From: Perna viridis
Lineage: Eukaryota
DNA length: 64,000 bases
Direction: 5' to 3'
Assembly: GCA_037379345.1 (NCBI GenBank)
Contig: CM074525.1
Location: 18,092,618-18,156,617 of the forward strand
Under the pieces are notes generated by a model. It ran no database searches. It was not told where the DNA came from and saw only the letters and a program-made list of their open reading frames with translations. The first letter of the stretch is position 1; each line of letters starts with the position of its first letter. The translations under genes and the position numbers were made by a program. This document shows positions 9,120 through 51,836 of the stretch, piece by piece.

Positions 9120-9315
9120 GGAGGTAGAAGTAACACTTGAAATCAGTGAAATGTTTGTATCATATTCAATTTCACCAAAGCCTCTCAGGCTTTCATTTGA
9201 AACAGAAGAAATCAGTCCAAGTTACTTTGATGCTTACGTGAGATTGATGTTACATGCTGAATACAAACGTTCCAATGATTTGCAAGAGTTATGTCCCTTA
9301 CCTAGGTCTACCTCC
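9120..9315. mobile_element. Kolobok-like MITE, left end degraded
   Basis: Internal match to the 50345 copy; right end CTACCTCC|TTAA. Confidence 0.7.
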
Positions 9316-9472
9316 TTAACGTTGACTAATAACTGTCTAACCTTATTTGATATTGAACTTCATAGAACAATTTCTTACAGACCCATATAGTATTATTTAA
9401 GCTATTGTCTAATTAACCCCCCCCCTCCTCCGCCCCAAATGCTTGTTTTAGTCTTTTTTTCAGTCCACAATC

Positions 9473-12479: not shown

Positions 12480-15400
12480 CTACTGTCTTTGAAAATCACA
12501 CATGTTATCTTGTGTGAAGTATTGTCCATCTAGGGATTTTAAATCCTCCAGGGTTGTTTCCAAGTCATCTTCATTAAAACTTGTATTCTGCTCTAAATCG
12601 AGAGAGAGATTTTTCTTGGCAGCCATAAATTCAATGTCATCATCCACTACATCATTAACCATGTGGTCATCAATTCTTCCATGACTGAACTTTCTTTGTG
12701 GCTTCATGACCTGTGAACTTGGGTCTGAAATAACCTCTTGTTCATTGAAATTTGAAATGTAATTGGGAGCTTGCATTGAGCTATTTTGCAAGCTTGCTTT
12801 GATAGACTCAATTTGAAATGATTTTTCCTTTTCGTCATCAGTCAGAGGTAGATTGTGTCGTACATCATTACTCTGTAACAAATGTTCTGGCAATGAGAGA
12901 TTGTGTAAATCTGTTGATGGGCGCGACTTTTTCAAATCATACTTGTTGGACATCATTGCTAACTTGTACGAAAACGGAGCTGCGAGCACCTGGTCCGAAC
13001 TACTATTATGATCCTCCGTTACCACAGCCTCTTTCTGATGTGGTGCATTAAATGCTCCCTTGTTGTTAGGCAACACCCTTTTATCAACTGTACCCTGAAG
13101 TTGTGACAATAGAGCATCACTGTAAGATGGGGGAGGCCTCTGTGACGAATGTTCATTTCTGGGTAGAATGCTACCTATACCTATAAGATCTTTCCTTAAT
13201 TTGCCCTGCTCCCTGGCTTGCATGGAGAGTACTGCTGAGTTTGGCTGAGAGCTGGCTACAGTAACAACTGGTTTGATCAGGGTTACATTACTACTGATCT
13301 GAAGTTGTGAGCCTTGAATTGGAACAAAAGACTGACCTGGTCCAACAGCATCAATTGGACTCTGCATAATATTCCGACTTGGGGTCGGGCAAGGCGATTG
13401 TAACGGGTAAGGAGTAGATGTTTGGAAACGTGGAGATATAGTCAATGATACCGGACTGAACATATTGGCATCACTAGCAATGCTCTGAGCCGAGTCTGCT
13501 CTTGTTGACATAAAACTCGAGTTATATCCTGATGTAACTGATGTGTCACATGTTAGAGTATGAGACACAGGTGTGGGATTGAGTATAGGGCTTGCCCCTA
13601 CGCTACCATAACCAGGGTCTGAGAATGGTGTCTGATTGGTTACTCTATCGACAGAAGGTTCCCGTCTCTTCATTGTTGAGGAATGTATTGGACTAGGGAA
13701 AAGTGTTGGCGTTTGAACAGATCGTCTATCAACAGCAGAACTGGTCCGTTCCACTGATGGTGTTCTCTGTCTTCTACTGACTGGTCTTTGTGGACTAGCA
13801 AACTTTCCCTCATCCAGATTTGTAGGTTTTTCAAATCTCTGAACTGACCCAGACTTGTTTGTTTCCATGATTAAATTTTGACTAGCAAGCATTGCACTTG
13901 GCAAACTTTGGCTATGAATTGAGATTGTGTTAGTATTTCCCATAGGTGAAAGATCATTTGTAAATGTTGAGCTCCGGTTCAAACCTTCAGAGTAGTCCAT
14001 ATTTTGTTGTTTTAAGCCCAATTTGTCAATAACTTGATTATTGCCATCAAAACTGGAATAATTGGCACCGTTACTTTCAATCTCTGCAGAAATTCTACCC
14101 GTTACAATATCTGTTATGAAATCAGCTACATCTTTGGGCAAGTCACTGTCTTCTTCCATCGGTGTGTTTTCATCAGAGGTCATACTAAAACCTGAACTAC
14201 TCTGAAGAATCCTAGAGAGATCTTGTTCTTGGAGATTTTCAATATTGTTCATATTCTGATGTGATTTAGTAGCTGTTTCATTAACTGACTGAGCTGGTGT
14301 TAGTAGAATATGGGTGTCACCTAACTGATTTGCCTGGAAACTCTCACAGAGATGAGTAGAAACGTAAGTGGAGACTATAGCATCACCTGTAGCACAGTTA
14401 AGCCGAGGCTGTGGAGAAGGTACTGAATTAGGCTGACTAAACCCTGTCTCATGTTTGTCCATTTTTTGAAGGAAAGTTCTGACACTTTGATCAAGCTTTG
14501 ATTTTTCCTTCAACAATTGTTGTTGAGATTTCCTCCATGATAAAGAGTTCACCCCAACTGATGCAGATTGGACTATTTTCTGTGGATGATTATTTGTAGG
14601 ATGTTCTTGCTTATCGAGATCTACCAAGGCATCAATCTCAAGCATGCTTATATCAGGATAATGCTGGCTTCTGCTTTGTTTCAATGCTGATGTTTTTGAC
14701 ATTATACCAGAATATCCTTTATCTATCTCAATTGTACATGATCTGCTTTCTTTCCTGCTGTCATTGTTTTCTTCAAACAGATCCAATTCTATGATATCAT
14801 TTTCATCAGCAGAATTAAGACGTTTTCTTCCAAAACATCTAAATGGAGCTCCATCAGAGTTAAGGAACTTTCTTTTCCTACCACCAGGTGGCTCAATCTC
14901 AGAAGAACATCTGGATCCTGGTCTAGAATGTACTATCTGGTCCCCATCTTCAATTTTAGCAAACTTTGATGGTGTTTCACAACTAACTTCATCCATTTTT
15001 CCACCTTGCATTCTAATCAGATCATCAATATCCATTGTGTCCTCATCATTCAAGTTGGGACTTTCGACACTCTTCTTTTTCTCCCAGGATTCTTCGTTTT
15101 TCTTCTCACCATCTTTATCTAAGCAGAGTGTATTTGGTCTGGTTGCAGGAGATTTCTCAAGCGCCTTTTCTACCATCTGTGGAACTGGGTTAATTACATA
15201 AACTATGTCCCCAGACTTGCCAACAGGAATGAGGCCAGGAGGTATAACCTGTCCACTCTGAAACTTTTCTATCATTTCAGCACTGGCAATTAACGTGTTA
15301 GGTGTAGGCTGTTTTGGCATGCCTATGGCAAACAGATTTTTCACGCTAGCAGGCCCATCACCTCTCTCTGCTGGAATAATGAATGATCCAGCAGATGGTA

Positions 15401-17731
15401 AAACAGACTTACCATCTGCAGTTGAACACACCTGTGGATTGGCAGTACCAGAAGGCTTCAGTATTGATGATATGTTTTGGCCAGTGGTCCCAGTGACATT
15501 TTGAGCATCTAAATTCTTTTGTTTGTTTTTAAGTTCAGCTTCCCTTGCTCGTTTTTCTTTTAACAATTCAGAAACAGATTTAGATTTGTCATAAACAAAT
15601 GGCTCTGATGGCATGACTTTTGTATCCTTTAAAATTGATGAAATAGTAGAGGATGTCTTCACAGGTGAAGCTTTAGGACGAATAGATACAAATCGACTCT
15701 TTGAGGATTTCTTAGGTGTGGATGGATTGTTTGAATTTGAACTATTCGTTTCAGTCACTTCTACAAGGCTACTTGCAGAAGAAATTGAACTTGTTGTTGA
15801 TGTTGAGCATACACCTGTGAAAGATGGTGCTGATGATCTGCATGGTGAAGAAACTACTTTTGTAGAAGATGAAGATGAAACTATAATTGGAATATTTGTC
15901 ATGGTGATGCTGATTGGTGTTGTTGGAGTGACGGGCTGCTTGTGTGAAGCTACGGCTCGGGAAAATGAGGCAGTAGTCACAGAAGGCATGGCTACTGTAA
16001 TAGGTACAGAGGTACAAGGTGATAGTAGACTGGATACCACACTTCCTAGAGACGGCCTTGACCTGTTGACAACAGCTGAACTTTCACCTTTTGAACATAT
16101 ATTTGGATTAGCCTGGGATGTTGACTGAATTACAATATTTTGAATATGTGAGCTTTCAGTTTGGACAACAACTCCAGGCAAATTTTGTGCCATTTTGGAA
16201 TCTTGGCATGAAGTTGGCTGATTGGTTGGAATTGAAACGGACTGAGTTGGAACCTGCAATGGAAGAGGTGCCATTACTTGTGCTGGCAGAGAGGCAACAT
16301 TCTTTCCAATTTCGGGCAAATTAGTTTGCCCAACTATAATGCCCGTGCTTCCACCAATATTGATATTTGCAGGCAGAATAATTTTTCCATCCACAGCTAC
16401 AATTTGTTGGGATATTAAGCTGCTATTGTTCACAACGTAAGAATTCAACGCTTTATGTGAAGCTGGGGAAACAGATACTTGATCACTAGTGGAAATATTT
16501 GCCACTGAAGTTGCCATGCTACTGGGAGCTATTATCCCACTCTGTACCACTGGTTGAAATGCTATTTTAGAAACTGGTTCAGCACAGTTGGGGGTTATTT
16601 CAGAAACACTCACTTTGGTATCTTCGACTTTGACCAATTGGCTGGGACCAACAACTTGTTCTATTTGTTCAAGTAAGTGGGACGGAAGTTTAGTGATATC
16701 AAAGTTATTAGGAACAGTAACATAAATCTGACCATCACTTTGTGTCAAACTTATTGGCGGACTCTTACACATATCGGCATTGCCCTCTTTCCTATTGTGT
16801 ATCTGAGAGAATGGGACAAAAGCACTCCTAGATGAATGGCTGGAAGTTTTGATCAGAGTCGTAGCATCACTATCATTACTTTCTCTATTAGTCTGACCAT
16901 TGTCATTTCTTGAATTGTCATTGACAGACTGAATGTTTTTATTTGACGGAGAATTGTGCCAGTCATTGGCAGAGATAACGGACGGTTTCCTAATGACATG
17001 ATGTGACGGACTAGACAGATTGTCAGGATTTATTTCTATAGACACAACACTTTTTTTAATTGGACGGTTTCCATCAACTTCATCAGAAGTCCTCCTTTCG
17101 TCTTGTATAATTCTATTCAAAGACCCAATTTCACATGAATCTATTGAAGGAATAGTACCAAAGTCTTTGTTTTGTTCAGTTTTTCTAGCAACACAATTTG
17201 TAACTTGAACACTTCTGGCTTGATTAGGAATGCCTTGTGTTATAACAGAAGTTTGGGGGTTTTCTATGAACACATTTTGTATATCTTTTGTCTGTTTATC
17301 AATTTTTGGCTCAGATATATTACTTTGCACCTTTTTAATTGATTGCAAAGATGGTTCCTTTTCAACACTAATCATTTCAACATCAGCATCAGAGATTGAC
17401 TTTGAACGTTCATTTTTCTCACTGTTTTTTTGCTCAACAATAAATGCTTGACTTTGCAGAACTTTCCCTTGCACACTTTTTGACCTCCCAATGTTGCTAT
17501 CTTCGAACAGCCTTTTAGCGGGAGATTTCATCACATGTACTGACGGGGAAGTGATAAAAGGAGTCTGCCTATCCTGACATTCTTTTAACTTGAGTTCATT
17601 TTCCTCTCTTTGCTGCTGAAGTTTTTTCTTCTGCTCACGAAGAAGTTTACCCTCCTGTATTTTCCTCTGAAGAAGCATTTGTGTTTCTCTGCGTCTGTCT
17701 CCACCAGTGATATTGGAAAACAAGGATGGCT
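12480..17731 (-). CDS. RFX7: RFX7 terminal coding exon, 5252 nt, S/T/P/Q-rich and probably disordered
   Basis: TTTTAG acceptor at 17732-33 in phase 1 with exon 7; uninterrupted 1747-aa ORF ending in TAG at 12480. Confidence 0.92.
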
Positions 17732-20700
17732 CTAAAACAGATAAAAAGTTACAATGACACAGTGTTTCACATATCAGTCTAGGTAAGAATCAAGCCTTTG
17801 GTGAAACCCCACCATTTTGACAGTGTATTTCTTGTGCAATCAGGCAAGCACTTAAAAGTGTCTGAAGTTCAAAATTTACTCTAGATGCGGCAGCCAGCCT
17901 TCTCTTAAATTGCAAGAATCTTGCAAAGTCGGGAAAAGGTGAATGATTTTACAATTGTCAAATGACATATGGTTTGAATAACGCCTGAGTTTCGAAAGGC
18001 CTGTCTGCTGCGGTAAGTAAGAGAGGAAACGAACTTCTGCTGTCACGTTGAGCTTGACAATCATGATCAAGGAATAAGAATATTTTTTTTATTTTTGGTC
18101 AAATGAGTTACAACATAAGTGTTTTTATTTAGAGCTGGATGATGGCAAAAATCACTGGATATTGGTGTAATATTTCCAGTTATTCTGATTTCCCCAGCCC
18201 GTGAATTCTTTTCTTCCTGAGATGTTCCTTCTATTCAAAAACTTAATGAATACACTGTAACATCATTGAAATGCAATGCCATTGAACATTTCATGGGCAG
18301 ATAACTGTGTCACAATCCTTAATCTTTCATCATTCTAATGAATAATTTTCATATACAGTGATGCAGATATCAAGAAAAAATAATTTAATACAGAGAACAC
18401 TTCCTCAATTGAAACTATATTGGCATATCACTACATTCTTACATGCATGTTTCAGATATTTCCCATTTTGCCTGATTCTTACATAGGCTTATACCATGTA
18501 CATGATGACTGATTAAGGAGGTAGATCTAGGGTAAGGGACACAACTCTTAAAAATCATTGGAACGTTTGTATTCAGAATTTTACATCAATCTTACATTTT
18601 TGTTTATAAGCATCTAATTAACTTGGATTCATTTTATTCTGCTTCAATGAAAGCTTGAAAGACTTTGGTGAAATTGAATATGTCCCTTACACTAGGTCTA
18701 CCTCCTTAAAATAACGATGTGCTAGTAATAGGTTACAATTACATTATGGTTCATTAAATAATTCCATTGACAGAGGGATTCATTCAACAGTTACAATGAC
18801 TTATTGATTGAATGTTAGTTACAACAGTATCAGTTTTGTATGCAGTCTAGTTTTCTTCTCTTCAGTTTGTACGTTTTATATTTTTCTGTAGTGAACTCAT
18901 CACTACAGAAGTTCTATGGTCGTCATCATGAACTTGTGGATCGTTCAGGTGTATCCATCTGTGCCATGAAAACTGTTCAGCTTTCCTTTCCTTTTCCTTG
19001 TATTTTATTCATTTCAATGTCATATATTTCAATGATTAGTTACAGTGACACTTTTTTTTGTAGTTATGTTTCTCAATCGGGCTTTAGAAAATGATTTTAT
19101 GTTCCAAAATAAGTGCAGTCCATATTATCACCTATTGGTATCATTACCTACACAATGTAATCATATTCTACAATGTGTAAACAGAAAATAACAGACAGAC
19201 AGTTTTACTATAAAAGACCTGTCAACTGAGAGATATAAGTAAAAAGCAGTGGAAGAGCTGAAAACACCTAGCGAAGGGGAGGGTTGCAATTGTCATGCTG
19301 CAGAGTGAGTGATATTAGCCATCTGATTATTTCTAAATGCATAAAGAAGAAGGGGAGAGTTGCATTTGTCAAAGGAGACTACTGTTGGCTTTAAAACATT
19401 TAAATGCATTTTCAAGAAGCATCAAATTGAAATTGAATATTTGGAAAAACTAAAACATCAAACAAATTTGGATAAGAAATGAAAAAAAAAGGTCTTTTTT
19501 TTTTAAACTGTAATATGAACATTTAAATGCATAAAACAGTAGTATGAGCCAAACGTCATGAACATTACACTTAAATAGTATTGGCTGACAGGTCTACAAT
19601 AATAAAATCTTTTTAAAGTCATACATGACTTGTACACGAAAAACCAACCTTTAATGTTCTGAATGCCGGCATCTTCCATGGCAGCGATGACAGTGAACGC
19701 TGCCACAGATTTACTGTTAACACATAGATTACTGATGAGGTACTCTGCCAAGTCTTTGATTCCCTGGAAGTTAGCATTAAGTAACTTGTGTGCCCATTCA
19801 CAGACTAATTGGCAGGAGGCTGTGTGGATTTCATCATCTTCATTTCCTGGCTGTGAAGTTAAAACAATATGTATAATAGATTACTGAAACAAGAAGTTGT
19901 CAGTCTAAAATTTGTTGTAGGTATTGAAGTCACAATGATTTGTTTATGAAATCATTAATTAAAACTAATTTTACATGTACAACTTACAAAAGATTCCTTA
20001 TATTGTCTATTGGACTGCCATTAGGTCAATTAATATGAAGCAGGTTTAATCTATAAGAGGATGAGGTTGAATAATCATGCCTTTTACAGTTTTCCATCAA
20101 CTATGATAAATTCTTTTTCGTATTTTAACAAAATTTTAAAATGGTAGTCATTAACTGACAAAGATTTTGTTTTTGTTAAAGATATGAAACTAAAAAGGAT
20201 CCTCACTCAATATAACAGGTTAACTTCCAGTTGGACTCAAACTGGACTTTCAGTGCTTCTAAGGTTAAAGTTTAAATCTGTACAGTAATGAGGACTTCAT
20301 CCTTTATATACTTTGGATTATCTCCCTTATAAGCATTTAACTTCATATATATCTTCATATGATGTCCAACTTTCATTCCAAATCACATCACAAATTCATT
20401 GACAAGTTGATGTACATGTAAGTAAAGTTTACAAGGACCACTGATGGATAAATATTCCAATATAACTCTGTAACGGTTTGTAAGAGTACATGTACGAACA
20501 AAAATGTCTTAGTTAAAACTCCTATATCACAACCTAACTGAAAATAAGACAATTAGGACAGAATATAATAATAGGAGGTGTGTTATGACTGCCAATGAGA
20601 TAGTAATCCACCAAATGCCAAGCAACGAAGAATAAAAGTTCTACAGGTCATCAGAAGCTGGGGAGAACATTCTTTCTACTTTAATGCAATTAAAGTTAAG

Positions 20701-23700
20701 ATATTATAGGTGTGATAAATAGGCCTATCTAAATAGCCATACTGATTAGTACAAAAAATCAACATATTACTGAAAATATAACACACAAACATGTAAACTG
20801 AGGAAACCACTCTCAGAAAACAGCAATAAGTATTGTGAAATTAAATTCAAGGGGTCATACCAACTACCAATTAGGTATCCATTAACCCAAATTTTTAAAC
20901 TGATTTCTTTTTTTGTACTTAAACAATACTTACAGTAGTCGTGGGTGCGATCTCCAGTTCTGGTAATGTAGGAGGCTGTACATCAAGCTTCTTTCTGAGC
21001 CCTCCATAACAATATGTGCAACAGAGTCAAGGATAAAAATATCGATATTTTTGATAGGTCATAAATAGGTCAAGTGAACATCAAAACAAAAATTCATTCT
21101 GTACAAATGACATCAAATGAAAGAAGGATTTATTGTGTAAAAATATATTCTATATTGTCATTTAAAAAAAAAACCTACAAAATACAATTTTAAGCCTTTT
21201 TTTCTTAATCAATTTTTATCAGTTGTATTTCACAGGAATACTGTGAAAGTACTTTTATTTGTGGGTACCAATTTTTGTGGTTTAGGGGAAATTGATCAGT
21301 TCATAGATTCTTGAATTTGTGAATTTGACAACTCTATCATACAAATGGGGAACTTCCTTTATGTTGAGAACCCAAATTTCGTGGTTTACAAGACCAACAA
21401 AAAAATGGTACCTGACGAACAATAATAATTTCACAGTATCAAAAATTGTTAATTTGTCAGTCATGCTGTTAAAAATTTTAGTTATCTACTTTGAAGTACA
21501 ATTACTTAAAATTGTTTATTCTAATTTCAATTAATTTCAACCATATTAAAAATCAAGAAATTGAGCAGAAGACTTTTTCAATATCTGCAATACACTCAAA
21601 AAGATTTAGACAGCTTCGAGCATAAATAATTTGAGCTGACTTTGAACTTAGGTTAAATGACCGGTAATACATGCACAGAATAAGAGATTTTTACGTCAAG
21701 ACAGAAAATATCCGTATAAGGCTGATAGGACAAAATGTGATGCTTCATTGAGACAATCCAGGGATGATTTAACCAGGTCTACAAACAAAGCAGAAATTGG
21801 CAAAATTGGAAATAAATATATAGTAAAAAAAGAATCTGACAGTAAAATCTGAATGAAACAGGGAATTCCGTGAAAAAACGGAAAAAAAAGCATCACTGAC
21901 ATTCAAATCTGGTGTTACTCTGTTCATTGTCAATTCTACTTAAAATTGTAAGCGTAAATCACAGTATAATATGTTTGAGTATCGCGACAGTTTACTGAAA
22001 TAAAATATTAGGTAGTAAGTACAAAAAAAAACGTTTTTTTACTATATATTTATTTCCAATTTAAGTATCACGACAGTTTACTGAAATAAAATATTAGGTA
22101 GTAAGTACAAAAAAAAAACTTTTTTTACTATATATTTATTTCCAATTTAAGTATCACGACAGTTTACTGAAATAAAATATTAGGTAGTAAGTACAAAAAA
22201 AACGTTTTTTTTACTATATATTTATTTCCAATTTAAGTACCACGACAGTTTACTGAAATAAAATATTAGGTAGTAAGTACAAAAAGAACGGTTAAAGTTG
22301 ATGGTAGTCAAGGATATCTAGATTGTCCTCGTTGCCCAAGTCTTCGTGGTTTAACGTTTGGAAAGACGGATTTCATTAACTTCCCAAAGTCCGCTGTACT
22401 TAAAGCCTTGATATCATGGGTTTCACAATACCATCTGAAAAAATATAAATATCTATCTATAAGTAAAAATAAAGATCCATGGCCTTTGTTCAATTTTCTG
22501 TGAAATAAAATGGCTCTTGTGATCTGACAATAGTGTGCTCAAGTGGGATGACAACCTAATATTGTACATTAGTACATTCAGTGTTTTGAGGAGTTGCTTC
22601 TATTACCTAGGACTGCACACTGAAAGTAAGGTTATAGGTAAGTGTGTCAACCATATGAGTCTGCTTAACTGATCCAACTTTAGGGGTAAATATTAGGAAA
22701 TACAAGCAAGTATATATTTTCTTTATGTTCAACTAAATTTTACCCAAAAGTTTGGTAAACCAGCTTAAAATCTACAGGCCATGGACTACTTGGCGACTGA
22801 CAATTTTTATCCCAGATTTGTTACTCTGTAGGTATGATTTTAGTTACTTTATGTTCTTTGCAGTGTATGTCTGTTTTCCATGTTTGGTCTTTGTCCCTGG
22901 ATTACATTCTTTTGATTTCCACTAGAACCTTGGTTCCCTTGATTACTCTTTTTGTCCTTATGCAATATGTATTTTGTTGTTTTGGAGTTACTAGTAACGG
23001 TGGTCTAAATCTTGTAGAAAGCCGCTTTAACAGTAGAAAAGTCACATTGCATTCTGAATAAGGGATCCCAATCAACTTCACATCCGGTCATACAAAATAT
23101 CATGATTTAAGGAGGTAGATCTACGGTAAGGAACATAACTCTTATAAATCATTGAAACATTAGTATTCAACATTTTACATCAATCTCATGTAAACATCAA
23201 AGTAACTTGGACTGATTTCATTCAGTTTCAAATGAAGGCTTGGTAGGCTGAGGTAAAATTGAATATGATACAAACATATCACTGATTTAAATAGTTATGT
23301 CCCTTACCCTAGGTCTACTTCCTTAAGCATTTACAGTGTTTCATGGTTATTAGGGTATTTTTTGGTCTGTTTGGAAAAATAAATGTGTCTTTTAAAACTT
23401 AAATAAACCTTTAAAATATGAATAAAATTGAAGTATATAGATATACATGAAGTTGATTTGTAACAAGCATTCTTATTGGACATTCCCTTTATGCAAATCT
23501 GGTTTTTTTGTATAATGTTTTGGTCTGTGACATTATTAACATAGATTATTTCACACTCTGCAATTCTAATAATAATAATAATAAATTATACAAAATGTTA
23601 AAATCAGAAACATTGCTTAAAAAATGATTTTGAAATATGTCATTTACAAAACAGTGTACATGTATTGTAATAACGATGTCACAACTAGTGACTTGTACAT

Positions 23701-26700
23701 GCGTGGAAAATAAAATTAGTTTAGCCGTACTTATAATCCTCATAGACATCCTGTTTGGGTAGACATATTTGTTCATCTTCCTCCAGGTGTGATTTTATCC
23801 ATGTATATGTCTGAGCCTGCTGTGTTCTGTTTGGTTTCTGTATTCCCACTGATGTAGGAGTTCTGAGAAAATAGAAAAAAAATGTACATGTACATGTATA
23901 TGTGCTGATAACTAGATACATGTAATCTAGATATCAAAGACAAGGAAAAGTTTTAGTGAATTCTTTTTGAAAAATAACAAATTGGCTTTTCGTCTATGTT
24001 ATCTATTACAAAAACTTCTGTCAAAGATAAATGGAAGAAGTTAGCACAAACAAGGAGAAGTTATCGCTCATTTTTTTTTTTTCATTTACATCTAAAATAG
24101 GCCTTGGTTCATTGTATGTTTACTATTAACTCAAACATCTGGTAATTCTGACTGTGATGGATAATATCTACTGGTTATAATCTTCATTGATTCTTCCAAC
24201 CTTATTTTATTCAAACTTGCCAAAGGTGCAAACTAATGTCGGTCCGAGGTCAGGGACTAACAGTCTCTGACCTAGGACCTCTGAAATTTTTTTTACATGT
24301 TACCTAGCTTTTGTTCTTACTTTCTTAAATCTTTGCAGGAGTCCCCTGTAGGTAACTTCAGATACAGAAACAGCTTCTCTACATCTGATAAACTTTTTAC
24401 TTCACTCTGAAAAAAAAAACCAAAAAAAAAAAACAGTAAAATTGACATTGATTTTTGTAAAATGGTTCGGTACAATGTGCCTACTTCAGCATTCATTCAG
24501 ACCTAATTTTCAATGGTTTAAAAATTCATGTAGCAAAAAGCAAAAATAATATCTATAAGGCCAAAATAAAAATATATGTGTTTCCCATTTACAAGTACAT
24601 TGTTTCAAAATGGGATAGGTAGGTATTTTTTTTGTTCTTTTTTGACAGGGTTGAATGAACATGGACATAGTATGTTGACACAAAACTGACCAGTTTGACT
24701 TGCATACAATCCATACTAAATCTTTAACTAGTAAATGGGACTGTACCTCAAAAGCATTTTCTGGTTTTGGGGTCAGTGCACGTGTTGCACTCTACAACAA
24801 GTGTGTGGCATTTAGGTAATTCTCTGTGGCATATTGTGAAAACCAGCAATGTTTGATGGTAAGCAGGCAAAGAATACTGTTCCAAGTTGTTTCCAAATGC
24901 ACAGCCAGCAGACTTCTTGTGGCCAACAAGTGTGCTGCCATTGTTGTTTTGGACAGGAACACAGACATATCATAATTTTTTGCTGGATTTTTTATTTTAC
25001 CCCAAAAAGCGTAAAAAAAAACTATGGGACCAGATAGGGTAAGTCGGGTAATCAAAAACACACCAACTTTTTTGGCCTGATAATCATATAAAAATTCTAG
25101 AAAATTTGATTGGCTGTTGTGTTATTGTCTACAAAATCTGATTGGTTGTTTGTTTCACATTGTTTATAACACCGCATTGGTTGGAAGCCACATTGTGATA
25201 TTTCTCATGCCATTTTCCAGCAACAAATGGTGACCTCATTGTTGGAAGAGTAATCAAGGAAACCAAGGTTATAGGGGTAATCAAAAGAACGCAATCCAGG
25301 GACAAAGACCAGACATGGAAAACAGACATACACAACAAAGAACATAAAGTAACTAAAATCATACATACAAAGTAACAAAAGCAAATGAGCAACTCGGATG
25401 AAGGCATAAATTTCTGCCATGGCAGATGTTGAATGTCAAGCAGATAAATATTCACAGAGAAAAAGGTTTTATTACTTTTAAAATATAAATATCACAAAAC
25501 ATCAACTAAGTGTAACTTTATATATTTACAATATCTAACCAAACTAGTCAAAATATTTATTGATTCACTTTTTATATCTATTAGATAATAAATTGACATA
25601 TATGATGTAATAATATCAATATTTCAACAAAGAAGTCATCTTCACATCAAAGCTATTTTTTTTGTTATAAAACACAGATGGCAATATACGTATACCTGAA
25701 CATGTACATGTATATACATTTTGTACTATAATTTCATGGAATGTAATATAAATTTTGGAAATCTCTCTAATAATCAGATGGGGTGATTCATTCAAAAACC
25801 TGCAATTTAATGTACCAAATTCACTTCTTTTTCGTATTCAGAAACAGTTACAGAACGTATAATCAGTCTTAGGCCATACAAAAAAAAATGCCTAAGTTCT
25901 CATGTCACTTTTTTTTTCAATTGATGCAGGAGGGAGGCTTTTTTATTTTTTTTTGATCAGTAGCAAGTTTTCTTTTTTTTTTGAGAAATTTCAATGAATT
26001 GAACAATTCTGTAAACGTGCAGTGGGTTGAGAAGTTAAATAAAATACTTCATGGCATTGAAACTTTACTGCAATATGAGATGTGGCAAGTAATAAAAGCC
26101 ATCTCTCAGCCACGAGACAAACTTTTTTAAATGTTCAATGATAAATAACAGCCTCATTCGCATCATACTTTTTACCTTTCTGTTAAGCGCGCAGATGACT
26201 CCGTTAACTAAATAAGGGTCAATTCTGGACTGAATATGGAAATTTCCGGTACAGATATCAAATTTATGGATTTTACCGTAATAAAAACCCCAGATGCAGG
26301 ATTGTTTTTAGGGATGCAGCGGGGCCTGAGAACCTAGCATTTCTTTTAGCCTTATTCAGTTGTGCACTTCCAAGATAAAAATTCTATAGTCACTTTGAGA
26401 AAGTTAAATTGTTTTGGATTCAGTTTAAATTGGTTGATTTCAGTGAGAGATGAACGCATGGGTTTCTCTAAAAGATCTGTATACAGAAAGGACTAATGTT
26501 AAGTAGCAAATGTAGACCCTAAAGCATCCTTCTGTTCCTTTGGGGTTTTTTCTACAGACATGAATCACCTCCACTATACATTGCACGTAGTGTCTGAATT
26601 TTATATGGATTGGTACTAAATACATGTTGTGTACACTTACTACTATTCTGTTGATTGTATTCTGAGCTTCTTTGCTACAATTAGAAAAAACAGATACAAA

Positions 26701-28370
26701 TAAGTTATATATTATGTAATGTCCCCAAAAAAATACACCGTCCATGCGAGACCAGACAGGGCAAATTTTGTTTTCATCATTCTGTGCTAATTTGCAAGTG
26801 CCTGTTGTTGTAGAGTAGTAGAGCTACATGTAAACGTATCTGCTTTCTTTGTAAGTTTGTCTCACCCTGAACTATAATCACTAATAAAAACTGAGTATAA
26901 AAAGTTGTTAACTCCATAATGCAGATTGGGAATATCATAACCAGTCAAAATAAGGCCAAAATACACATGTACATATGTACATGTACATGTCCATGAATAT
27001 AATCAATATTTTTATTTTTCAAATTGCCTAAATGGTAATAGGTGATGAAGCTCATTCTTAAATGTATAGAAATTCATCTAAATTTTTATCATAATGACCA
27101 CATGAGAAACTTTAATCAAAGCAAAAGGCTACATCTCTATCTATTAAAGCTTTTGCAATGTAGTAAAACACCTGCTAAATTAAACATTTTGAAGACCCAC
27201 ATGTTATTTGATTGGAACTCTTGGGACATTATCAAAAAAATCTACTTCTGATTTTAGTAAAACAAGACTCTTTGCTGTACCGAGAACTGCTTTACCAATA
27301 AAATTACAAATATTTGGAATGTCCTTTTTTTCTGGGTTATCCTAAATCAAATGTTGTACAAACGGTAAATGAAATTAATTCCTAATCCATTTTATTCAAA
27401 AGGGAACCTATTCAATGCTTCACTTGCACTTAAGGTAAATGCCTTACTCATATTAAGATATCATTTTTTTGTTTTATTTCATTTTGAAAATAGACAGATA
27501 GATAGCTTTATTTAGATTGAATATCAACATACATTTTTACTATTACATTCATACATCACAAATACATTCACATCACAATATAAATACACTTAGATCATAA
27601 TATAAATACATTTATACATTACTAAGTTCACATTCGTATTGATACTTAAAATATTACCTAGCCAATAATGTATCTAGGCCAAATGTAAAAATTCAAAGTT
27701 TAAGCCATAAAAGTATGTAACAGTTGTTGATATTTAACCTAGGATGGCCCATAAAAACTTTACAGCTTATTTCCAATGGGGTCCTTTATAGCAATTAAGG
27801 TTTTAAAAAAATAATGCATACTGCACATGCTCTTTGTGGGAAACACTATAATGTTGTAAATATCTATGGTTCCTCTTAAAAAAATATTTTGCAATCTGTG
27901 ATCTGGTAAATTAGGATCCATTAACTGAAATTAACCTCTAATACAATCAAATAAGTTGGACATACAACAGTTAACTGTTAAAATAGGCATTTGAAAAAGC
28001 ACTGAACTACAAAATTAAGAAAATACAGTCACTGGAATGAGTAATTCATTATTTGTCATGAAACTGGGTCACACTGAAGTGAAGGTACATACATCATTGT
28101 CATGTATTGGCAACCCGTTTTGGGCAATGACAAGCTATTAATCTAGTCACAAATTTACCTGAGAGATGATTCGAGGCCTTCCTCTATGTGGGAGAACCTA
28201 GATTTTGTCTCCTTCTCTCCTACATCACTATTATTCGACGGTGACATTTTGTAAACATTAGCATTGTCAGAAATTTGTGTTGCTTGTTTCGCATTTTGTG
28301 GCCAAAAAACAGGATCGATTTGAACAATATCTACTCTAAATGCATCTTGACATGCCAATACACTATTCAT
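12480..28370 (-). CDS. RFX7: RFX7-like (RFX5/RFX7 subfamily) winged-helix transcription factor; join(complement 28159-28370, 26641-26674, 24321-24406, 23731-23862, 22318-22434, 20934-21015, 19649-19850, 12480-17731), ~2038 aa
   Basis: The exons splice in phase (6117 nt) and give VEKLFLYLKLPTG, the RFX DBD [74 protein letters not shown] and ASCQLVCEWAHKLL. These match the recalled human RFX7 N-terminus block by block. The start Met is uncertain (28370, or the downstream MSPSNN). Confidence 0.93.
18517..18705. mobile_element. Kolobok-like MITE with TTAA TSD
   Basis: TTAA|GGAGGTAGA...TCTACCTCC|TTAA; TIR ~25 bp. Confidence 0.8.
18894..18975 (+). mobile_element. Penelope-like fragment encoding SSLQKFYGRHHELVDR
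   Basis: Matches ~3955-4030. Confidence 0.7.
19649..19850 (-). CDS. RFX7: RFX7 exon 7 (PGNEDDEIHTASCQLVCEWAHKLL...AAFTVIAAMEDAGIQNIK)
   Basis: CACAG acceptor, G|GTTGG donor; conserved post-DBD helical domain of RFX5/7. Confidence 0.92.
20934..21015 (-). CDS. RFX7: RFX7 exon 6 ([27 protein letters not shown])
   Basis: Follows the AC acceptor of the U12 intron; GTAAGT donor; completes the DBD and carries a PxLPxL motif. Confidence 0.93.
21241..21436. mobile_element. TA-flanked MITE (Tc1/mariner-like) inside the U12 intron; related pieces near 38320-38490 and 51230-51350
   Basis: TA|CTGTGAAA...TTTCACAG|TA with an extended imperfect IR. Confidence 0.7.
21978..22287. repeat. Minisatellite, ~87-bp unit x ~3.5, near-identical copies
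   Basis: CGACAGTTTACTGAAATAAAATATTAGGTAGTAAGTACAAAAA occurs four times. Confidence 0.95.
22318..22434 (-). CDS. RFX7: RFX7 exon 5, second half of RFX DBD
   Basis: TTTCAG acceptor; [38 protein letters not shown]; ends at the ATATCCTT U12 donor. Confidence 0.95.
22817..22951 (+). mobile_element. 3'-end fragment of the Penelope-like element (RFX7 intron 4)
   Basis: Matches ~4205-4337. Confidence 0.8.
23111..23322. mobile_element. Kolobok-like MITE, same family
   Basis: TTAA|GGAGGTAGA...TCTACTTCC|TTAA. Confidence 0.8.
23731..23862 (-). CDS. RFX7: RFX7 exon 4, first half of RFX DBD
   Basis: TTCTCAG acceptor, GTACGG donor; [30 protein letters not shown]. Confidence 0.95.
24321..24406 (-). CDS. 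RFX7: RFX7 exon 3 (SEVKSLSDVEKLFLYLKLPTGDSCKDLR)
   Basis: polyT-CAG acceptor, GTAAGA donor; RFX5/7 N-terminal EKLYLYLQLP-type motif; missed by the ORF track. Confidence 0.92.
25246..25400 (-). mobile_element. 3'-end fragment of the Penelope-like element (RFX7 intron 2)
   Basis: Reverse complement of ~4185-4337. Confidence 0.8.
26641..26674 (-). CDS. RFX7: RFX7 exon 2, 34-nt micro-exon (KEAQNTINRIV)
   Basis: TTGTAG acceptor and GTAAGT donor; phase-consistent; positionally equivalent to the recalled human KTVQSKVDCIL segment. Confidence 0.75.
28159..28370 (-). CDS. RFX7: RFX7 coding exon 1 (MNSVLACQ...IEEGLESSL)
   Basis: Open frame ending at donor AG|GTAAA; phase 2 fits the next exon; lies at the edge of a CpG-containing promoter-like region. 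Confidence 0.65.
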
Positions 28371-29455: not shown

Positions 29456-30033
29456 TCTATTTTTATAAAATTATACAATAGTTTACTCCATGATTCTCGT
29501 GATTCAACCATTGACCGTATGAGCAATCTCGGAATACTATCGTATAACCCCTATACAAAAATATTACAAAATGCAGTCTACGGGGACAAAATAAAAAGCT
29601 TTTTAGTTTTATTTTTGCAATTGTAAACTTTTCAATCATTAAGCTAAAACATTGTGTGTCGTGAAGCATACATTTTTTCATTATAACCTTACTTATACAA
29701 CTATGTTCTTTTAAACGATCTAATTCTATCAATATCTAAGTTGAAAATGTTTCATACGATTATACGGAAAATTGATTGTTAAATGGTGGTACATAGTTTC
29801 CTTTCGTTGTTATTTTCTATGTGGGTATAATTTTGCATTTAAGGGAAAGACCACCTTTGCATTAAGTTAGGCTCTTCTGAAAAATCATACACATGTAAGA
29901 CTCATGTAACCTAAAATAAATAGCCTTTAATGCAAAATGCTCTTTTGTAAAATGCACACAGCTATGCGAAATTCGAAATCCTTGAGATATATGTGAATAG
30001 CCAAAACTCTTCTATCTGAACATGGGGGTTTGC

Positions 30034-30136
30034 TATCAAATATGCAGCCCCACTAGTATATAACCACGGGGCTATATCAAGGAATTAAATATATTTAACT
30101 CTTTGGTTATATACTAGTGGGGCTGTATATTTGATA
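30034..30136. repeat. 33-bp inverted repeat (hairpin); single arms recur near 55195 and 60915
   Basis: TATCAAATATGCAGCCCCACTAGTATATAACCA ... TGGTTATATACTAGTGGGGCTGTATATTTGATA. Confidence 0.85.
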
Positions 30137-30398
30137 ATGGGAGCAAACCCCTCTGATTAGATTCCTACATCCTTTCTGTGAAAGAAATATACACGCAAAA
30201 CAATCATTAGAAATAATAAAGTTACTATTTAAGACTCCGGAAACCCCTAAAAAATCAATGCAACTGTTTCTGTTCATTTTTTGCTGTATACACCTTCTGT
30301 AGTTTGTGGCATGCTGTCTTTATACCTGTATTTAAACGAGAGAATTATTACATATGATATGAACACACGATCATATCCTGTGTATTTTCCTACAAAAT

Positions 30399-30785
30399 TA
30401 AGTCATCACTACAGAAGTTTTATAGTCGTCTTCATGAACTCGTGGATCGTAACGGTGTATCCATGCATCTGCACCATACATGAAAACTGATTTGTTCTAC
30501 GTGGTTCGACGTGTCATAGTTGGTCTACACTTGACTTGACTTTTTATGAGCAACTCGGCGAGTCAAAAGCAGAGGACGCTTACCCTTCCAATGCACCTGG
30601 TCCATGCTTCCAGTTTTTAGTGGAGTCAGAGTTGCTCATTTACTTTTGTTACTTTGTATGTATTATTTTGGTTATTTTATGTTCCTTGTTGTGTGTGTGT
30701 GTGTGCGTTTTCCATGTCTGGTCTTTGTCCATGGATTGCATTCTTTTGATTTCCGCTAGAATCTTGGTTCCCTTGATTACTCTTC
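30399..30785 (+). mobile_element. 5'-truncated 3' end of the same Penelope-like element
   Basis: Colinear with ~3950-4337, ending in CCCTTGATTACTCTT. Confidence 0.85.
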
Positions 30786-31773
30786 CATACTACTACCAAT
30801 GTTGAAATATCATTATAGAACAGGAATGGGTTTACATACTTTCAAAAATAATTTAATACTTTCAATTACTTTGGAAATTTGTCAAATACATTACATTGCA
30901 ATTATTTTGACTTTTAAAATGTATTTGGCTTTTTCATATACGTTTCAAAATGTAATAGAAAGGAATTCACCTTTATAACACACTATTTTATAATTTTTTG
31001 TTTGACACTTTCTTAATCACTTTCACACCTTTTCTAATTCAAAATAATGTTGATATTTGGGTGTCTAAATATGTCCTCAGGGCACTGTGGAGAGACAATT
31101 TTAATGACTGTCTAATGTGGATTAGTAGATTAAACAAAGACCGGAACATAACTAATTAATATGTATCAAATGATCAAAGGTGTGATAACTTTATTAGGTG
31201 TCATCCTGGTTTGCCCACTTTTAATTAATGGATTAAATAAACATATAATATAACAAATATGCATTATATATGTGCACTATGTTACTATACAGTACGAAGC
31301 ATTAAGAGAAAAAATATAATGTATGGTACCATGTCTTGCCGACAACATTTAATGCAAGCAGTTGATGTAATCTGAAAGTTTCTCAGCATTTAATTTTATT
31401 CGGCTGCAGTGCGTATGACGTGTATAACACAAGATTAAACCATCAACACCCGAGTTAAGGAACGAAGCAACACAAAAATGTGACGTATAAAAAGTTACAT
31501 AAAAAAGTCGCGGTAAATAAAGTCACTCTTTATATATAGTGAGGTTTTTAGTGAAAATATCCATTGTAAATTTTAAAAATTTGTTCTTCATCATACCTTT
31601 TATATCATTTAATACTGAAATTAAATAATTTTACAGTGTGTTTGCATATTAATGTCTGATAAGTTGAAAGTTTAATTTTTAAATAAAAAAATCCAATTTT
31701 CATAGTAGCCATTTAGTTTCTTACTTGTACTTATAAAGTGGCCACATCTACCAGTACATTTGGAAGACAAGTG

Positions 31774-31895
31774 AAAGAGTAATCAAGAGAACCAAGGTTA
31801 TAGCGGTAATCAACAAAATGTAATCCAGGTAAAAAGACCAGACATGGAAAACAGACATACACAACAAAGAACATAAAGTAACTAAAATCATACAT
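31774..31895 (-). mobile_element. 3'-end fragment of the Penelope-like element
   Basis: Reverse complement of ~4220-4337. Confidence 0.75.
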
Positions 31896-33384
31896 GAAGA
31901 ATAAGAAACATTATTGCGTCAGCATTTACAAAAAATATCAATTATGAGCGGCTTGACAATAATATAAACAAGGAGTTAAATGTAAATCCTTGATATAAAT
32001 AAAGAAAATATTTGCAATCACGAAATATTATACATAAACAATTATACGGGGTTGAGTAGTAACTTAGTAACTGCAGAGAGCAAAATTGCATGTAATTTAG
32101 ATATACTGTAAATAGCTATGAATGTAAATGAGACCTAATACCCCAACTCACTCTTAAGAAGCACACGATGTTGTATTTTTTTTTTTTTTAGATTTGGCCA
32201 CTAACAATAATCAATAATAATTGGAAAAAAAATATTTTAACCTTAACAGGCGATATGCTGGGCCATCTATAGCACAAAATGATACTCATTTTCAATACTC
32301 TGCATATAATCTATCTTGTTGAATCTGGTTAATATATCGCCCAAGAAGTCACAGAAAATACTACCATAGTTATTATGATTGAAATCAATTACTTACATGT
32401 ATATAGTTATAATTCTGAATATTCTCTATATATTGGCTCTGCCCCATCCCACAATTGTTATTGAACATCGTTTATCCATCACACTGTCTCCATATGTCTT
32501 AATTAATAATGTCAATCACTTGTATGTAATTCTCTGCTCTATCAAAGGGTCTTTTCATGGGAATAAACGATCTTATCTTATCTTCTGACCATGCTGAATA
32601 AATGACAATTTATTGGTATCACATGTGACACTGTAATTTGGCAGACGGAAGGAAAAGGAACAGGTATGGTAAAACGCAACAAATGCACCATCGTATAACT
32701 GCAGGGAGCAGAGAAACTACCAATATTGGGGTCTCACTAATTGCCGACAAGAAGCGTCAAGAAGCAACAAGAAATTGATATTGTAAGAAGTTATATTATA
32801 AAAAAAAAACAATTTGCGCATGCATTGTTGATATGAATAAGCCATTTAAGGTTAAAATACAAAAGATAGTGACAAAAGAATGAAGAGGAAATGATTCTTT
32901 GAGCAAAATAAATTTTGTGACTTTAATAGTAAAGTTATACATCTGTATATATACAAATTTAAGATGCTATATTTCTTTGTGGTTTTTGCGTTATACACGT
33001 GCTTAGAGTTGACCAGAGTTCCAAAATGATCGTTGTTTTGTTTTTGTTTTGTTTTGTTTTTGCTTTTGTTTTTTGGGTTTTTTTGGGTTTTTTTTCTCAA
33101 TTTCTTTATTTTTTAATTTTAAAATGAAATAAAAATGTTTAAAAATTTTGAGGCACGTGTTCCAGCTATTTAAGTCTCATCAGTAACGCTTTGCCAAAAA
33201 TAACAGAATTAAATGCAAATTTAAAAAGACCAAATTATTTCTTCGGATTTTCTTTGTTTTATAAATTTGTAATTTGTTCAATTTTTGAATTTAGAGATAT
33301 TGAAGTAACTTGTGTTTTCTAATTTTTATTTTATTTTTGTTAGTCTCATCTGGAGCGCTTTGCAAATTTGGAATAGGTTTTTAT

Positions 33385-34482
33385 ATTAGATACTTTAAAT
33401 TCTGAATATATTTTAAGTCTCTAGGTTGGTGGTCAGAATTAAAATTTTCAGTGAAAACCTGTTTCACTGTTTTACCTCATTCAATATCATTTTGCACTTT
33501 ATTTTTGGTAGCTGGCGAAGTGCGAATGTACTTTTGCTTTGTAATTCTTGCGTTCCCATGTCTATTTATGTCATCAATGGGATAAGAACTAATATATTCG
33601 GCATATGCTTTAGAAATAGTGTCATTTGAATGGCCAGGCATTTTCTCAAACCAACATATTCTCTTCTTGTATTGCTTATCCCTTTTTAGAGATACGTAGT
33701 AACGCTTTAGCACCAATAAATTATAATCGTCTGGTTGAGGTTCTAAAGGAATAAATTCCTTTTTTATTTCTTTGCAATAAAGGCCATTCATGTTGACACA
33801 TGACTGAAGAGTGCCGTCAACTTTTCGTACATAATATGTAGTTTTGGTGGATGTTGTTTTGGAATCCAATGTTCCACAATCATCCCAATACCCCACTTTC
33901 TTTGATTGTGCTCTCTTATTTGTGTTTGCAGTATGATCTAACCCAATTCTAGGTGGATAGACTGACTGAATCGGACAGCCAATAACTGTTGCTGCCCCTA
34001 CGATGGCCCAGGCTGATGACCAGCTTTTGTTTGTGGCAGCACTTTTGCATGCCTGATCATAAATATTAGATACAAGTTTTATACTATCATATTTATGAGT
34101 GTCTTGTTTTGCTTTATTGGTTACAAGTTCAATGCAAGTTAAAACCCAGAGCCGACTTGCTAGGTTTTCATTGCCCGTAATATCAACCGACAGTGCATTA
34201 AAGAGACAATTGCCATTGCTAGAGACATTGATCGGTTTTCTGTCAATGAAAGATATTTTGTGCTCATTCAGGGTCTGTTTAGATACATTGTCTTGTACCA
34301 AAGCAGATTGAGCTGAATAAGTTAAGTCAGTCTCATCTATACTTCTACAGTGCGTTAAGGTATTGGACTGGTCTTTCTTTATTTTTTTTACATTTATTGT
34401 GAAACCATGATTCACATGATTCACAGTAAACACAAAGGCTTGTGCAATTTTTGCCGCAGTCTCCACAAGGATACTTTGCCAT
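33385..34482 (-). pseudogene. Frameshifted transposon ORF: PHD-like finger + vertnin-like OTU cysteine protease + N-terminal part of a MULE transposase (DDE domain missing)
   Basis: ATG at 34482 gives MAKYPCGDCGKNCTSLCVYCESCESWFHNKC. The track ORF has NGNCLFNALS..SWSSAWAI..IQSVYPP, then HGNA..KYIRT. After another frameshift comes PRDLKYIQNLKY. Confidence 0.8.
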
Positions 34483-34486
34483 TTTG

Positions 34487-34695
34487 ATTCCCTTGTCCAA
34501 GGGGAAAACCGTCTACCAAAGGGTTTGTAATACCGATGGTATTATATAACTTCACTCCCCTTACCAAAGGGGAACCCTGTTCAAAAGAATTTGGACTAAC
34601 ACCGATGGTATTAATCTTAAAAAAATTTTATTCCCTTGCCCAAGGGGAAGCCCTGCTCCTGGGAGTATCTATTTATTAACACCGATGGTATTAAT
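34487..34695. repeat. Three ~70-bp direct repeats upstream of the MULE ORF
   Basis: Each has the hairpin TCCCTTG(n)CCAAGGGGA (or a variant) and ACCGATGGTATTA. Confidence 0.8.
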
Positions 34696-36017
34696 GTCAG
34701 CGTATCAAAGCGACACTGTATGCAAATACGTAGCAAAGATTCTTACAAACGCACAGAGTCGTACTTTTGCAAGAACCAGAGTGACTGATTTGGGTCCGGT
34801 ATTTATATTAAAGATGAATAAAAAGTTCGGCTTCTTCAGCTTGGGTGTATTGAATGGATGTATAAGATGAGTTAAGTTTTGGTTTTTGTCAGCTTGTTAG
34901 AAAAAAAAATTCTGTACTAGTTACCCTTCGAACGCAAATGACGAACAAAACAACCACGCTTAGAATCATCAGCAGTGTTTTTACTTTACTTAGTTTTCTG
35001 GTCTATGGCTTCATAAATTATGATGCTAAAAAAACTTACTACGGCACATATTATTTTTAATTTTCACATCAAAAGAATCAATGTGTTTAATTCTGAAGGT
35101 TACAACTACAATTCTAGCAACCAAAACTCTTGATTGTGAGATCAAAGGGTGAGTGGCTTCTCTTAGGTAATTAATATCATAACTACCCCAATTAACAATT
35201 TAACGACCTACATGCCGAGGAAAGCCCACGTGCCAACATAAGTCAGTGGTTAACGCCTTGTTGACTGGCGCGTGGATGAATGTCATAACTTAATTAATCC
35301 GATTGGCTGATATGCATAAATATACAAATCTATCGAAATGTAGAATGATCTAGAATCCTGACATATCTGCATTCTTTAAGAATGATTTCAAATAATTTTT
35401 AAAAGTAAAAATAGCATATAACATCAAAGAAATAGATAACATATATCTTAATCTTTTGATAAAAACAGAGCATTTTTAAACTCAAATCTTTGCAAATTAC
35501 GTTATTTTCACCCTTTTCATCAATTTATTTCTTTATCATATTTTAAAATGTCATTTACAATGACATATTTGATTAATATTAGTTTCTCGAAATTTTAAAA
35601 CTTATATGGCAAATTTTTGCCAGAGACATTAATGTCTCTGTTTTTATCAACTTTGCAAACAAATAGAACCAGGGATTTATAAAATCTTACAATTACTACT
35701 ATTTTTTTCATCTTTTTATAATTCAAGCAGCAAATAAATATAGTCTCTCTCCTCTTGTCGGTATTTTTTAGTTTCCTGTCGCTAATACAATTTCTTGTCG
35801 CTTCTTGACGCCTCTTGTCGGTAATTAGTGAGACCGCAATATTGTGATGCAACAAAATAACAAAAAAAGACAGAAAAAAATATACGGTGCTTATTGGTGA
35901 ATCAATATTGATGGTCCATGCAACCGTACCATATATATTAGAACGATAGCACCCAAATGCCGTCCGAGTTTAGAAGGTAGGTGCAAATTCGCCCTCCTCG
36001 TTTTAGGTATATTCGCC

Positions 36018-36046
36018 GATTTACGGCAACAATAGTATGCGTCAAA

Positions 36047-36053
<7 letters not shown>
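36018..36053 (+). promoter_or_regulatory. TEX9 start region: X-box half-site (GGCAAC) and YY1-like AAAATGGCGG over the ATG
   Basis: Motifs read directly from the sequence; the left X-box half is poor. Confidence 0.3.
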
Positions 36054-50800
<14,747 letters not shown>

Positions 50801-51550: not shown

Positions 51551-51836
51551 TCCATTTACATATCTTACTTGACATATTTCCTTCTGCCCTTCAGGAGAAT
51601 CCTGTGGTTTATAAGTCCTCCATTTACATATCTTAGTTGGCATATTTCCGTCTCCCCTTCAGGAGAATCCGGTTATTTATAAGTCCTCTCCATTTACATA
51701 TCTTACTTGACATATTTCCTTCTCTCCTTCAGGAGAATCCTGTGATTTATAAGTCCTGTCCATTTACATATCTTACTTGACATATTTCCCTCTCCCCTTC
51801 AGGAGAATCCTGTGATTTATAAGTCCTCTCCATTTG
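51551..51836. repeat. Minisatellite, ~70-bp unit x4
   Basis: CCATTTACATATCTTA..CTTCAGGAGAATCC..TTTATAAGTCCT repeated. Confidence 0.95.

Follow-up and report, generated by a model that had tools for sequence, protein, structure and literature searches.

An internally deleted Mutator-like transposon in Perna viridis and its intact relatives, which join a PHD finger and an OTU protease to a DDE transposase

A 64,000-nucleotide stretch of the Perna viridis genome (GCA_037379345.1, contig CM074525.1, positions 18,092,618 to 18,156,617; hereafter the window) contains, at 32729–35836, an element in which remnants of a PHD finger, an OTU protease and a transposase follow one another on the minus strand. 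What kind of element is this, and what might such cargo do for a transposon? The initial annotation, made from sequence alone, described a Mutator-like transposon with all three parts in one decayed open reading frame, proposed that the cargo might be an anti-silencing or targeting module, and suggested possible kinship with the source of vertebrate vertnin (VRTN). We conclude that the element is almost certainly an invertebrate DNA transposon of the Mutator-like (MULE) type, reduced by internal deletions to a non-autonomous copy. Its intact relatives (935–1184 aa) combine four domains in one protein: a PHD finger, an OTU protease, a central region and a DDE core.

The ends of the element are well defined. 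Terminal inverted repeats (TIRs) of 49 bp occupy 32729–32777 (the 3' end of the coding strand) and 35788–35836 (the 5' end) and are identical at 45 of 49 positions, the terminal base being among the four mismatches. They are flanked by a perfect 8-bp palindromic target-site duplication (TSD; 32721–32728 and 35837–35844, 8/8), for which the chance expectation is approximately 4e-5 per register. Five end registers and eight lengths were considered, and among these 40 combinations the other fitting registers were two of 9 bp with one mismatch each. Being palindromic, the duplication was counted by the repeat finder as part of a 57-bp arm. The boundaries given by the initial annotation thus stand, and in this one copy both TIR and TSD lengths fall within the ranges for MULEs given in the accessible text of PMC6446971 (14–500 bp and 8–11 bp, respectively). 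No further copy of the element, or miniature inverted-repeat transposable element (MITE) derived from it, was found in the window by TIR pattern or by self-BLAST; the pattern scan returned three matches, comprising the two true ends and one at chance level.

Between the ends, three remnants, all on the minus strand, match the intact 1102-aa relative P0002 in order (aa 3–31, 102–234 and ~531–707). The first (34355–34482; P0002 aa 3–31 by tblastn) opens with the ATG at 34482 that had been proposed as the true start of a Cys/His finger, and is recognized by Pfam PHD at E 2.5e-4 (21.4 bits, against a cut-off of 24 bits). Six of its eight zinc ligands are present, as are the Tyr and Trp cage residues, and the last CxxC (Cys7 and Cys8) has been deleted along with an estimated 50–60 following residues. 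The second (33939–34340) is the N-terminal two-thirds of a vertnin-type OTU protease, 48–54% identical to P0001 and P0002 and matched by Pfam OTU at E 0.0057, below the cut-off. It retains the catalytic Cys (34208–34206); the catalytic His segment and the linker have been lost in frame at ~33940. An Asp-to-Asn replacement before the catalytic Cys (34217–34215) is common to P0156, P0252 and P0010, and is therefore a sub-lineage variant and not decay. The third remnant (33381–33941) comprises the central transposase region and the helical segment that follows it (P0002 aa ~531–707; tblastn E 1e-41 to 1e-53, 41–54% identity), with an internal TGA at 33479–33477 and a final TAA at 33383–33381. The OTU, SVYP, HGN..YIRT and PRD..QN.KY motifs lie where the initial annotation had placed them, and the Pfam scan it proposed gave matches to both PHD and OTU, neither of them reaching the cut-off. 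Its single decayed reading frame does not survive: a frameshift in a run of eight A (34389–34382) leaves the PHD finger in a different frame from the OTU (frame 33477–34541), and the central region is interrupted by the TGA.

Measured against P0002, three segments have been deleted: the end of the PHD finger with the helices behind it; the linker together with the His segment of the OTU; and the whole C-terminal part beyond ~aa 710, including the DDE core. At the junction between OTU and central region both parent segments read Leu-Asp, an overlap that suggests a microhomology-mediated deletion. The AT-rich 3' remainder (32778–33380, minus strand), where the DDE domain is expected, has no tblastn or HMM match; GC content is 26% over 32729–33392, and a 25-bp direct repeat pair is present at 33173 and 33342. 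Neither here nor in the leader was any DDE remnant detected, and the window holds no transposase catalytic domain: tblastn with 166 family proteins (E≤0.01) gave no match outside 33380–34490, and scores of the family's DDE profile were negative (below 0 bits) in each of the six frames. The 5' non-coding leader (34483–35787, minus strand, ~1.3 kb) contains three imperfect ~70-bp repeats directly upstream of the ATG (34483–34700), and no structured RNA was matched by Rfam in 30000–38500, leader included. The transposase of the window copy is thus confined to its N-terminal, non-catalytic part, and neither protease nor finger is intact. The copy encodes no working enzyme, its OTU being dead and its DDE domain absent; its ends are intact, and it could therefore move only in trans. 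When the missing residues are added back, the parent element is estimated at ~4.8–5.4 kb, encoding one ~1000-aa protein with the order PHD – OTU – linker – central region – DDE.

The nature of the parent can be read from the relatives. The initial homolog search recovered three proteins among 1376 candidates, one of which was P0002, where PHD, OTU, central region and DDE lie in one chain. A search with P0002 returned 4534 representatives at E≤1e-3, a number that falls to 1903 at 1e-10 and to 429 at 1e-30; the best 150 were taken for the family study. Domains were counted in 153 proteins with our own profiles, seeded from the same protein set: the full PHD–OTU–central–DDE order is present in 16, OTU–central–DDE without PHD in 26, and most of the others are fragments. 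The proposal of PHD, OTU and transposase in one polypeptide therefore holds for the intact relatives. Where both central and DDE domains are present and preceded by 280 aa or more, as in 44 proteins, an OTU domain is found in every case. An alignment (A1) was made of 31 of the 42 OTU–central–DDE proteins, leaving out 11 that are mostly truncated. Mean identity in the family is 31% for OTU, 33% for the central region and 36% for DDE.

Distances between OTU domains co-vary with those between DDE domains (Mantel r 0.36, with 0 of 999 permutations as high), and we take the PHD/OTU cargo, on this ground, to be old and inherited with the transposase. These data bear on the view that PHD and OTU are recently acquired host gene fragments, captured in the manner of Pack-MULEs and without any role in transposition. 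MULEs are known to carry gene fragments and the window copy is itself fragmentary; however, dozens of relatives, at 25–40% identity, have both domains in frame with DDE, the catalytic residues are invariant, and OTU and DDE co-vary. Recent capture is, as a result, scarcely credible, and is already largely refuted.

The few named relatives include P0156 of Mytilus edulis, 64% identical over 102 aa of OTU, and a protein of Ciona intestinalis, which is a member of the clade. A scan of GTDB gave 75 pattern matches, of which 12, at seven loci, were confirmed. At two loci, L001 (94–1737) and L002 (445–3225), a family transposase is encoded on a short contig (2.6 and 4.6 kb) belonging to a metagenome-assembled bacterial genome; L002 has an open frame of 926 aa, and no clear TIR pair was found on its contig. 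Both are most likely animal host contamination of the bacterial collection. L001, L002 and protein P0200 are animal-type transposon genes on short contigs from metagenome-assembled genomes labelled Sedimenticola. A further locus, L006, was rejected as a family member, its sequence reading as an OTU of another kind. One 815-aa protein (P0079), in which the central region occurs four times and DDE is not matched, is possibly a domesticated DNA-binding protein.

The assignment to MULEs draws on the catalytic core as well as on the ends. In A1 the three residues of the DDE triad are present in 30, 31 and 30 of the 31 members, and the Cys and His of the CxxH motif, a MULE signature, in 31 and 30. 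Pfam MULE or Transposase_mut is matched at the curated cut-off by 12 of 30 members, and the IS256 model by 28 of 31 at E≤0.05 (for P0002 far below the cut-off). We file the family under MULE because of these matches together with the 8-bp TSD, and the superfamily named initially is thereby upheld, as it is by the TIRs; profiles for PHD, OTU and MULE all find matches, no other superfamily emerged, and the domains are joined and not in separate genes.

The central region is more difficult to place. No Pfam family gives it a name in the 31 members, nor was there a meaningful match in the PDB, and just one Cys and one His are conserved. WRKY-GCM1, FLYWCH and SWIM zinc fingers, one of which is common in MULEs though not required, do not appear in the part of the Pfam results listed for the 31 members (25 of 36 families, E≤10), and none of these fingers is matched by two or more members. 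A presumed likeness to the CG-1/WRKY-GCM1 fold finds no support in Pfam or the PDB. The region is probably the part that binds DNA and the TIRs.

What, then, does the cargo do? The catalytic Cys and the catalytic His of the OTU domain are each present in 31 of 31 A1 members, Pfam OTU is matched in 30 of 31 at E≤10 (best 4.9e-9), and Atlas features give 0.94 for an OTU fold in P0156. The relatives thus combine the fold or profile with both catalytic residues, of which the window copy keeps the Cys and not the His. The closest solved structures are those of the deubiquitinases OTUD1 (E 2e-8), OTUD5, VCPIP1 and OTUD7B, which speaks against a self-processing role, whereby the OTU would cut the PHD–OTU part off the transposase at the variable linker. 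Self-processing has been proposed for OTU-bearing MULEs of Medicago (accessible text of PMC1702500), and the linker between OTU and central region is indeed long and poorly conserved; nevertheless, the linker consensus has no conserved cleavage motif, and the same OTU occurs N- or C-terminally on unrelated transposases. We regard self-processing as rather improbable.

The PHD finger offers a hint of where such a protease would act. The best matches of the family PHD profile are MLL1 PHD3, DIDO, BPTF, Pygo and CXXC1, which read methylated H3K4. The complete C4HC3 pattern is found in 29 of 32 family PHDs; 27 of these 29 have an aromatic residue or His (Tyr/Phe/Trp/His) two positions before Cys1, and 27 have a Trp two positions before the His. 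In Pygo the two positions correspond to Y341 and W366, the residues of the K4me cage (PMC2726290), whereas readers of unmodified K4 have no such cage and instead an acidic patch (PMC3241642, accessible text). The pattern fits a Pygo-type cage, and most family PHDs are predicted readers of methylated H3K4.

On these grounds we favor, tentatively, docking on active chromatin combined with local deubiquitination over anti-silencing and self-cleavage. In an intact element the central region would bind the TIRs and the DDE core would cut and paste the element, leaving the 8-bp duplication; cut-and-paste transposition is established for MULEs. Docking by the PHD finger on open chromatin with methylated H3K4 would shift insertion toward active regions, and the tethered OTU would strip ubiquitin from the transposase or from nearby chromatin or repair proteins, such that the complex might survive and the break be resolved in favor of the element. 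Anti-silencing would set the same two domains to work at the element's own copies, removing repressive ubiquitin (e.g., H2AK119ub) and thereby keeping the transposase gene expressed. A reader beside an eraser is the design of host chromatin enzymes (PMC3241642, as far as its text is accessible), the fused DNA-binding region could carry the enzyme to the TIRs, and the OTU catalytic residues are invariant. Against this, the PHD has the methyl-K4 aromatic cage and not the acidic patch before Cys1 of unmodified-K4 readers, and because of that cage its expected preference is for active chromatin, not for silenced copies; moreover, no transposon-encoded H2AK119 deubiquitinase appeared among the 15 of 757 literature matches listed. 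Anti-silencing is consequently unlikely, in our judgment, and of the two roles suggested initially it is targeting that the predicted cage residues fit better.

Several points weigh against this reading, from the identity of the element to the role of its cargo. The palindromic TSD could instead be assigned to a longer TIR of 57 bp, although we disfavor that reading because no duplication would then flank the element. TSD length and TIRs are known from one copy: the retrieval of full-length elements proposed by the initial annotation yielded intact family proteins but, in the scan of GTDB, no intact DNA copy with both TIRs. The Pfam scores of the window copy are below the cut-off for PHD and OTU alike, and the central region belongs to no recognized DNA-binding family. 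A PHD is present in just 14 of the 31 A1 members, most of the others having short N-termini; the PHD-less members may be truncated gene models. The family PHDs do not have the EVND loop of Pygo, and cage residues alone are no proof of histone binding. Finally, the catalysis of transposon OTU domains has not been assayed, according to PMC9741609.

Some of these features are already known: a MULE of Hydra has an OTU motif, and cargo consisting of a PHD finger and a protease has been described on transposases. The nearest elements, compared by published description only, are two animal MULEs in the accessible text of PMC6446971. MuDR-6_HM of Hydra (group 14) has one reading frame in 5227 bp and an 'Ovarian Tumour Gene' motif, with neither PHD nor TIRs listed; MULE-Cg/MuDR-1_CGi of the Pacific oyster (group 15) has one reading frame in 4318 bp and 48-bp TIRs, with no PHD listed. 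Their lengths roughly bracket our estimate for the parent, and members of our family may be among these groups. In Rehavkus, described in the same text, a MULE-related transposase and a PHD share one reading frame, but the TSD is 9 bp, there is a 3' minisatellite, no OTU is listed, and the hosts are arthropods and annelids. Ginger1 elements with OTU, or with Ulp1 and PHD, and Mutator elements with Ulp1 likewise place a ubiquitin or SUMO protease on a DDE transposase, and the role proposed for the protease of Ginger1 is the same, acting on DNA-repair signalling (PMC2836005, accessible text); Ginger1 differs in being of a Gypsy-integrase-related superfamily, in its C-terminal cargo, and in pairing PHD with Ulp1 and not with OTU. 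OTU-MULEs of Medicago and PHD-MULEs of Ciona and C. elegans (PMC1702500) also combine a MULE transposase with OTU or PHD; in the text accessible, however, the cargo is C-terminal, OTU and PHD are on separate elements, and a WRKY-GCM1 finger is present, for which our family has no Pfam match. Helitron/Helentron OTU and VTD deubiquitinases (PMC9741609, PMC6431247) are comparable as transposon-borne deubiquitinase cargo, and VTDs have been shown to be active according to the accessible texts, but the elements are rolling-circle and VTD is another protease class. No description of an N-terminal PHD-plus-OTU arrangement on a MULE, or of a transposon origin for the VRTN OTU, was found among the matches listed from open-access text, Repbase Reports excluded; the accessible parts of PMC10294476 and PMC6875170 contain nothing on OTU or PHD cargo.

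The remaining question concerns VRTN (C14orf115), the nearest named structural match to the OTU fold, which shares motifs with the family in the accessible part of a published alignment. VRTN sets vertebra number in pigs and its OTU-like domain is without known role (PMC10318531); its catalytic Cys and His are replaced (PMC3024977, PMC10318531; both as far as their texts are accessible). It is catalytically dead, with a long insert, five helix-turn-helix (HTH) domains and neither DDE nor PHD, whereas this family keeps its active-site residues and a short insert (84 in the window copy, against 107) and has no match to HTH_Tnp_1 or HTH_23. In a structure search with the Atlas model of the P0156 OTU the chordate vertnin cluster was in the first row (TM 0.82 over 148 residues), an unnamed fungal cluster reached 0.85, and named OTU clusters gave 0.66–0.69. 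OTU sequence searches return mollusc and rotifer proteins labelled Vertnin or VRTN-like, many of them on other mobile elements. The description 'vertnin-like' is thus consistent with both the modelled structure and the labels of sequence matches. No vertebrate VRTN was seen among the 120 of 197 matches listed (7999 candidates scored).

To place the domain more precisely we compared 204 OTU-bearing proteins, labelled from Pfam names and accession numbers: 77 belong to this clade, 36 are Helitron-like, 30 have another DDE, five are hAT, two FLYWCH and 54 are without label. The link of accession numbers to Helitron is in part our presumption. After dropping 14 short or His-less segments, 190 were kept for spacing and tree. 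The spacing from the catalytic Cys to the Pro of SxYP is 81–93 in this clade (65 rows), 105–117 in other DDE proteins (30), 90–122 in hAT (five rows, four of them 108–122), and in Helitron-like proteins 80 in 31 rows and 111–113 in five. In VRTN, counted by eye from the alignment in the accessible supplement 9 of PMC3024977, it is 107. Of the 190 segments, 58 were used for a tree (24 from this clade, no VRTN sequence included). One branch, with support 96/89, unites 21 OTUs, most of them with the long insert (14 from other DDE proteins, four hAT, three Helitron-like), and all 24 clade rows fall outside it; support at deep nodes is weak, and the OTUs of this clade do not form one group (three changes).

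That this MULE clade was the direct donor of vertebrate VRTN might be argued from the vertnin cluster at the top of the structural rows for a relative 64% identical to the window copy, from the Vertnin names returned by OTU searches, and from the Ciona protein within the clade. Yet the VRTN spacing is outside the 81–93 of the clade, the well-supported long-insert branch excludes every clade row, VRTN continues into five HTH domains and not into the central or DDE region, and the fungal cluster is also among the Atlas rows; we give direct donation only a slim chance. Because the VRTN insert fits the long-insert form (mostly 105–122) and the OTU rides on several kinds of transposon, the MULE clade is probably a cousin of VRTN's source and not the donor. 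The VRTN domain itself rather probably belongs to the same transposon-borne OTU pool. The kinship suggested by the initial annotation therefore probably runs through the wider pool and not, given insert length, through this clade as donor.

A separate set of proteins (P0168, P0170, P0171, P0173, P0175, P0178, part of P0181–P0222, and P0247), ~1000–1300 aa and DDE-like, has a C-terminal long-insert OTU, and many of its members bear the label 'Vertnin'; a scan of 20 of them gave no match to any Pfam transposase family. As a lead, these are the best candidates for VRTN's closest mobile relatives. A broader scheme can be sketched from the sequence comparisons, though we hold it to be speculative and somewhat doubtful. 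Animal transposons would share an active vertnin-type deubiquitinase lineage, exchanged between elements of four or more kinds (MULEs of this clade and of the FLYWCH type, hAT, Helitron-like and unnamed DDE elements); here it would be joined to a PHD finger that reads H3K4me, the pair of reader and eraser directing insertion and countering host control by ubiquitin, and VRTN would be a domesticated, dead offshoot of the long-insert branch.

Elsewhere in the window, exons on the minus strand at 12480–24410 (near 24373, 23801, 22394, 21014 and 19.5–19.9 kb, with a 1769-codon frame at 12480–17789) we take, from their motifs, to be an RFX5/7-like transcription factor gene, a Pfam scan of two frames giving no support. 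The transposon lies on the same strand ~8.3 kb upstream of the 24.4-kb exon, and the 5' (first) exon of the gene was not found in the window. Segments at 27047–27463 and 37060–37792, ~10 kb apart, flank the transposon and are ~70–87% similar in inverted and direct orientation; they may be a dispersed repeat present twice or, alternatively, the decayed arms of an older, larger element. A dispersed family of 135–400 bp, 77–92% identical (3935–4344, 22817–22951, 25243–25398, 30383–30787 and 31772–31908), presumably resembles mollusc non-autonomous Helentron-type repeats. A MITE-like repeat of ~220 bp with inverted ends has at least seven copies (9131–9319, 10373–10502, 18513–18682, 23105–23326, 41889–42056, 48870–49091 and 50340–50558), and tandem arrays occupy 5003–5377, 21974–22285, 51551–51835 and 62044–62248, with units of 159, 86, 70 and 22/66 bp, respectively.

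The window copy itself is an ordinary decayed transposon; the family to which it belongs matters more. Many invertebrate 'Vertnin' database entries sit on transposon proteins and are not VRTN orthologues, and the family offers a possible origin for the OTU-like domain of VRTN. It also supplies many intact, conserved examples for the long-standing hypothesis, put forward in PMC2836005 and PMC9741609, that transposons carry ubiquitin proteases to get past host control, and in it the protease has as its partner a histone reader for which the probable mark is predictable.

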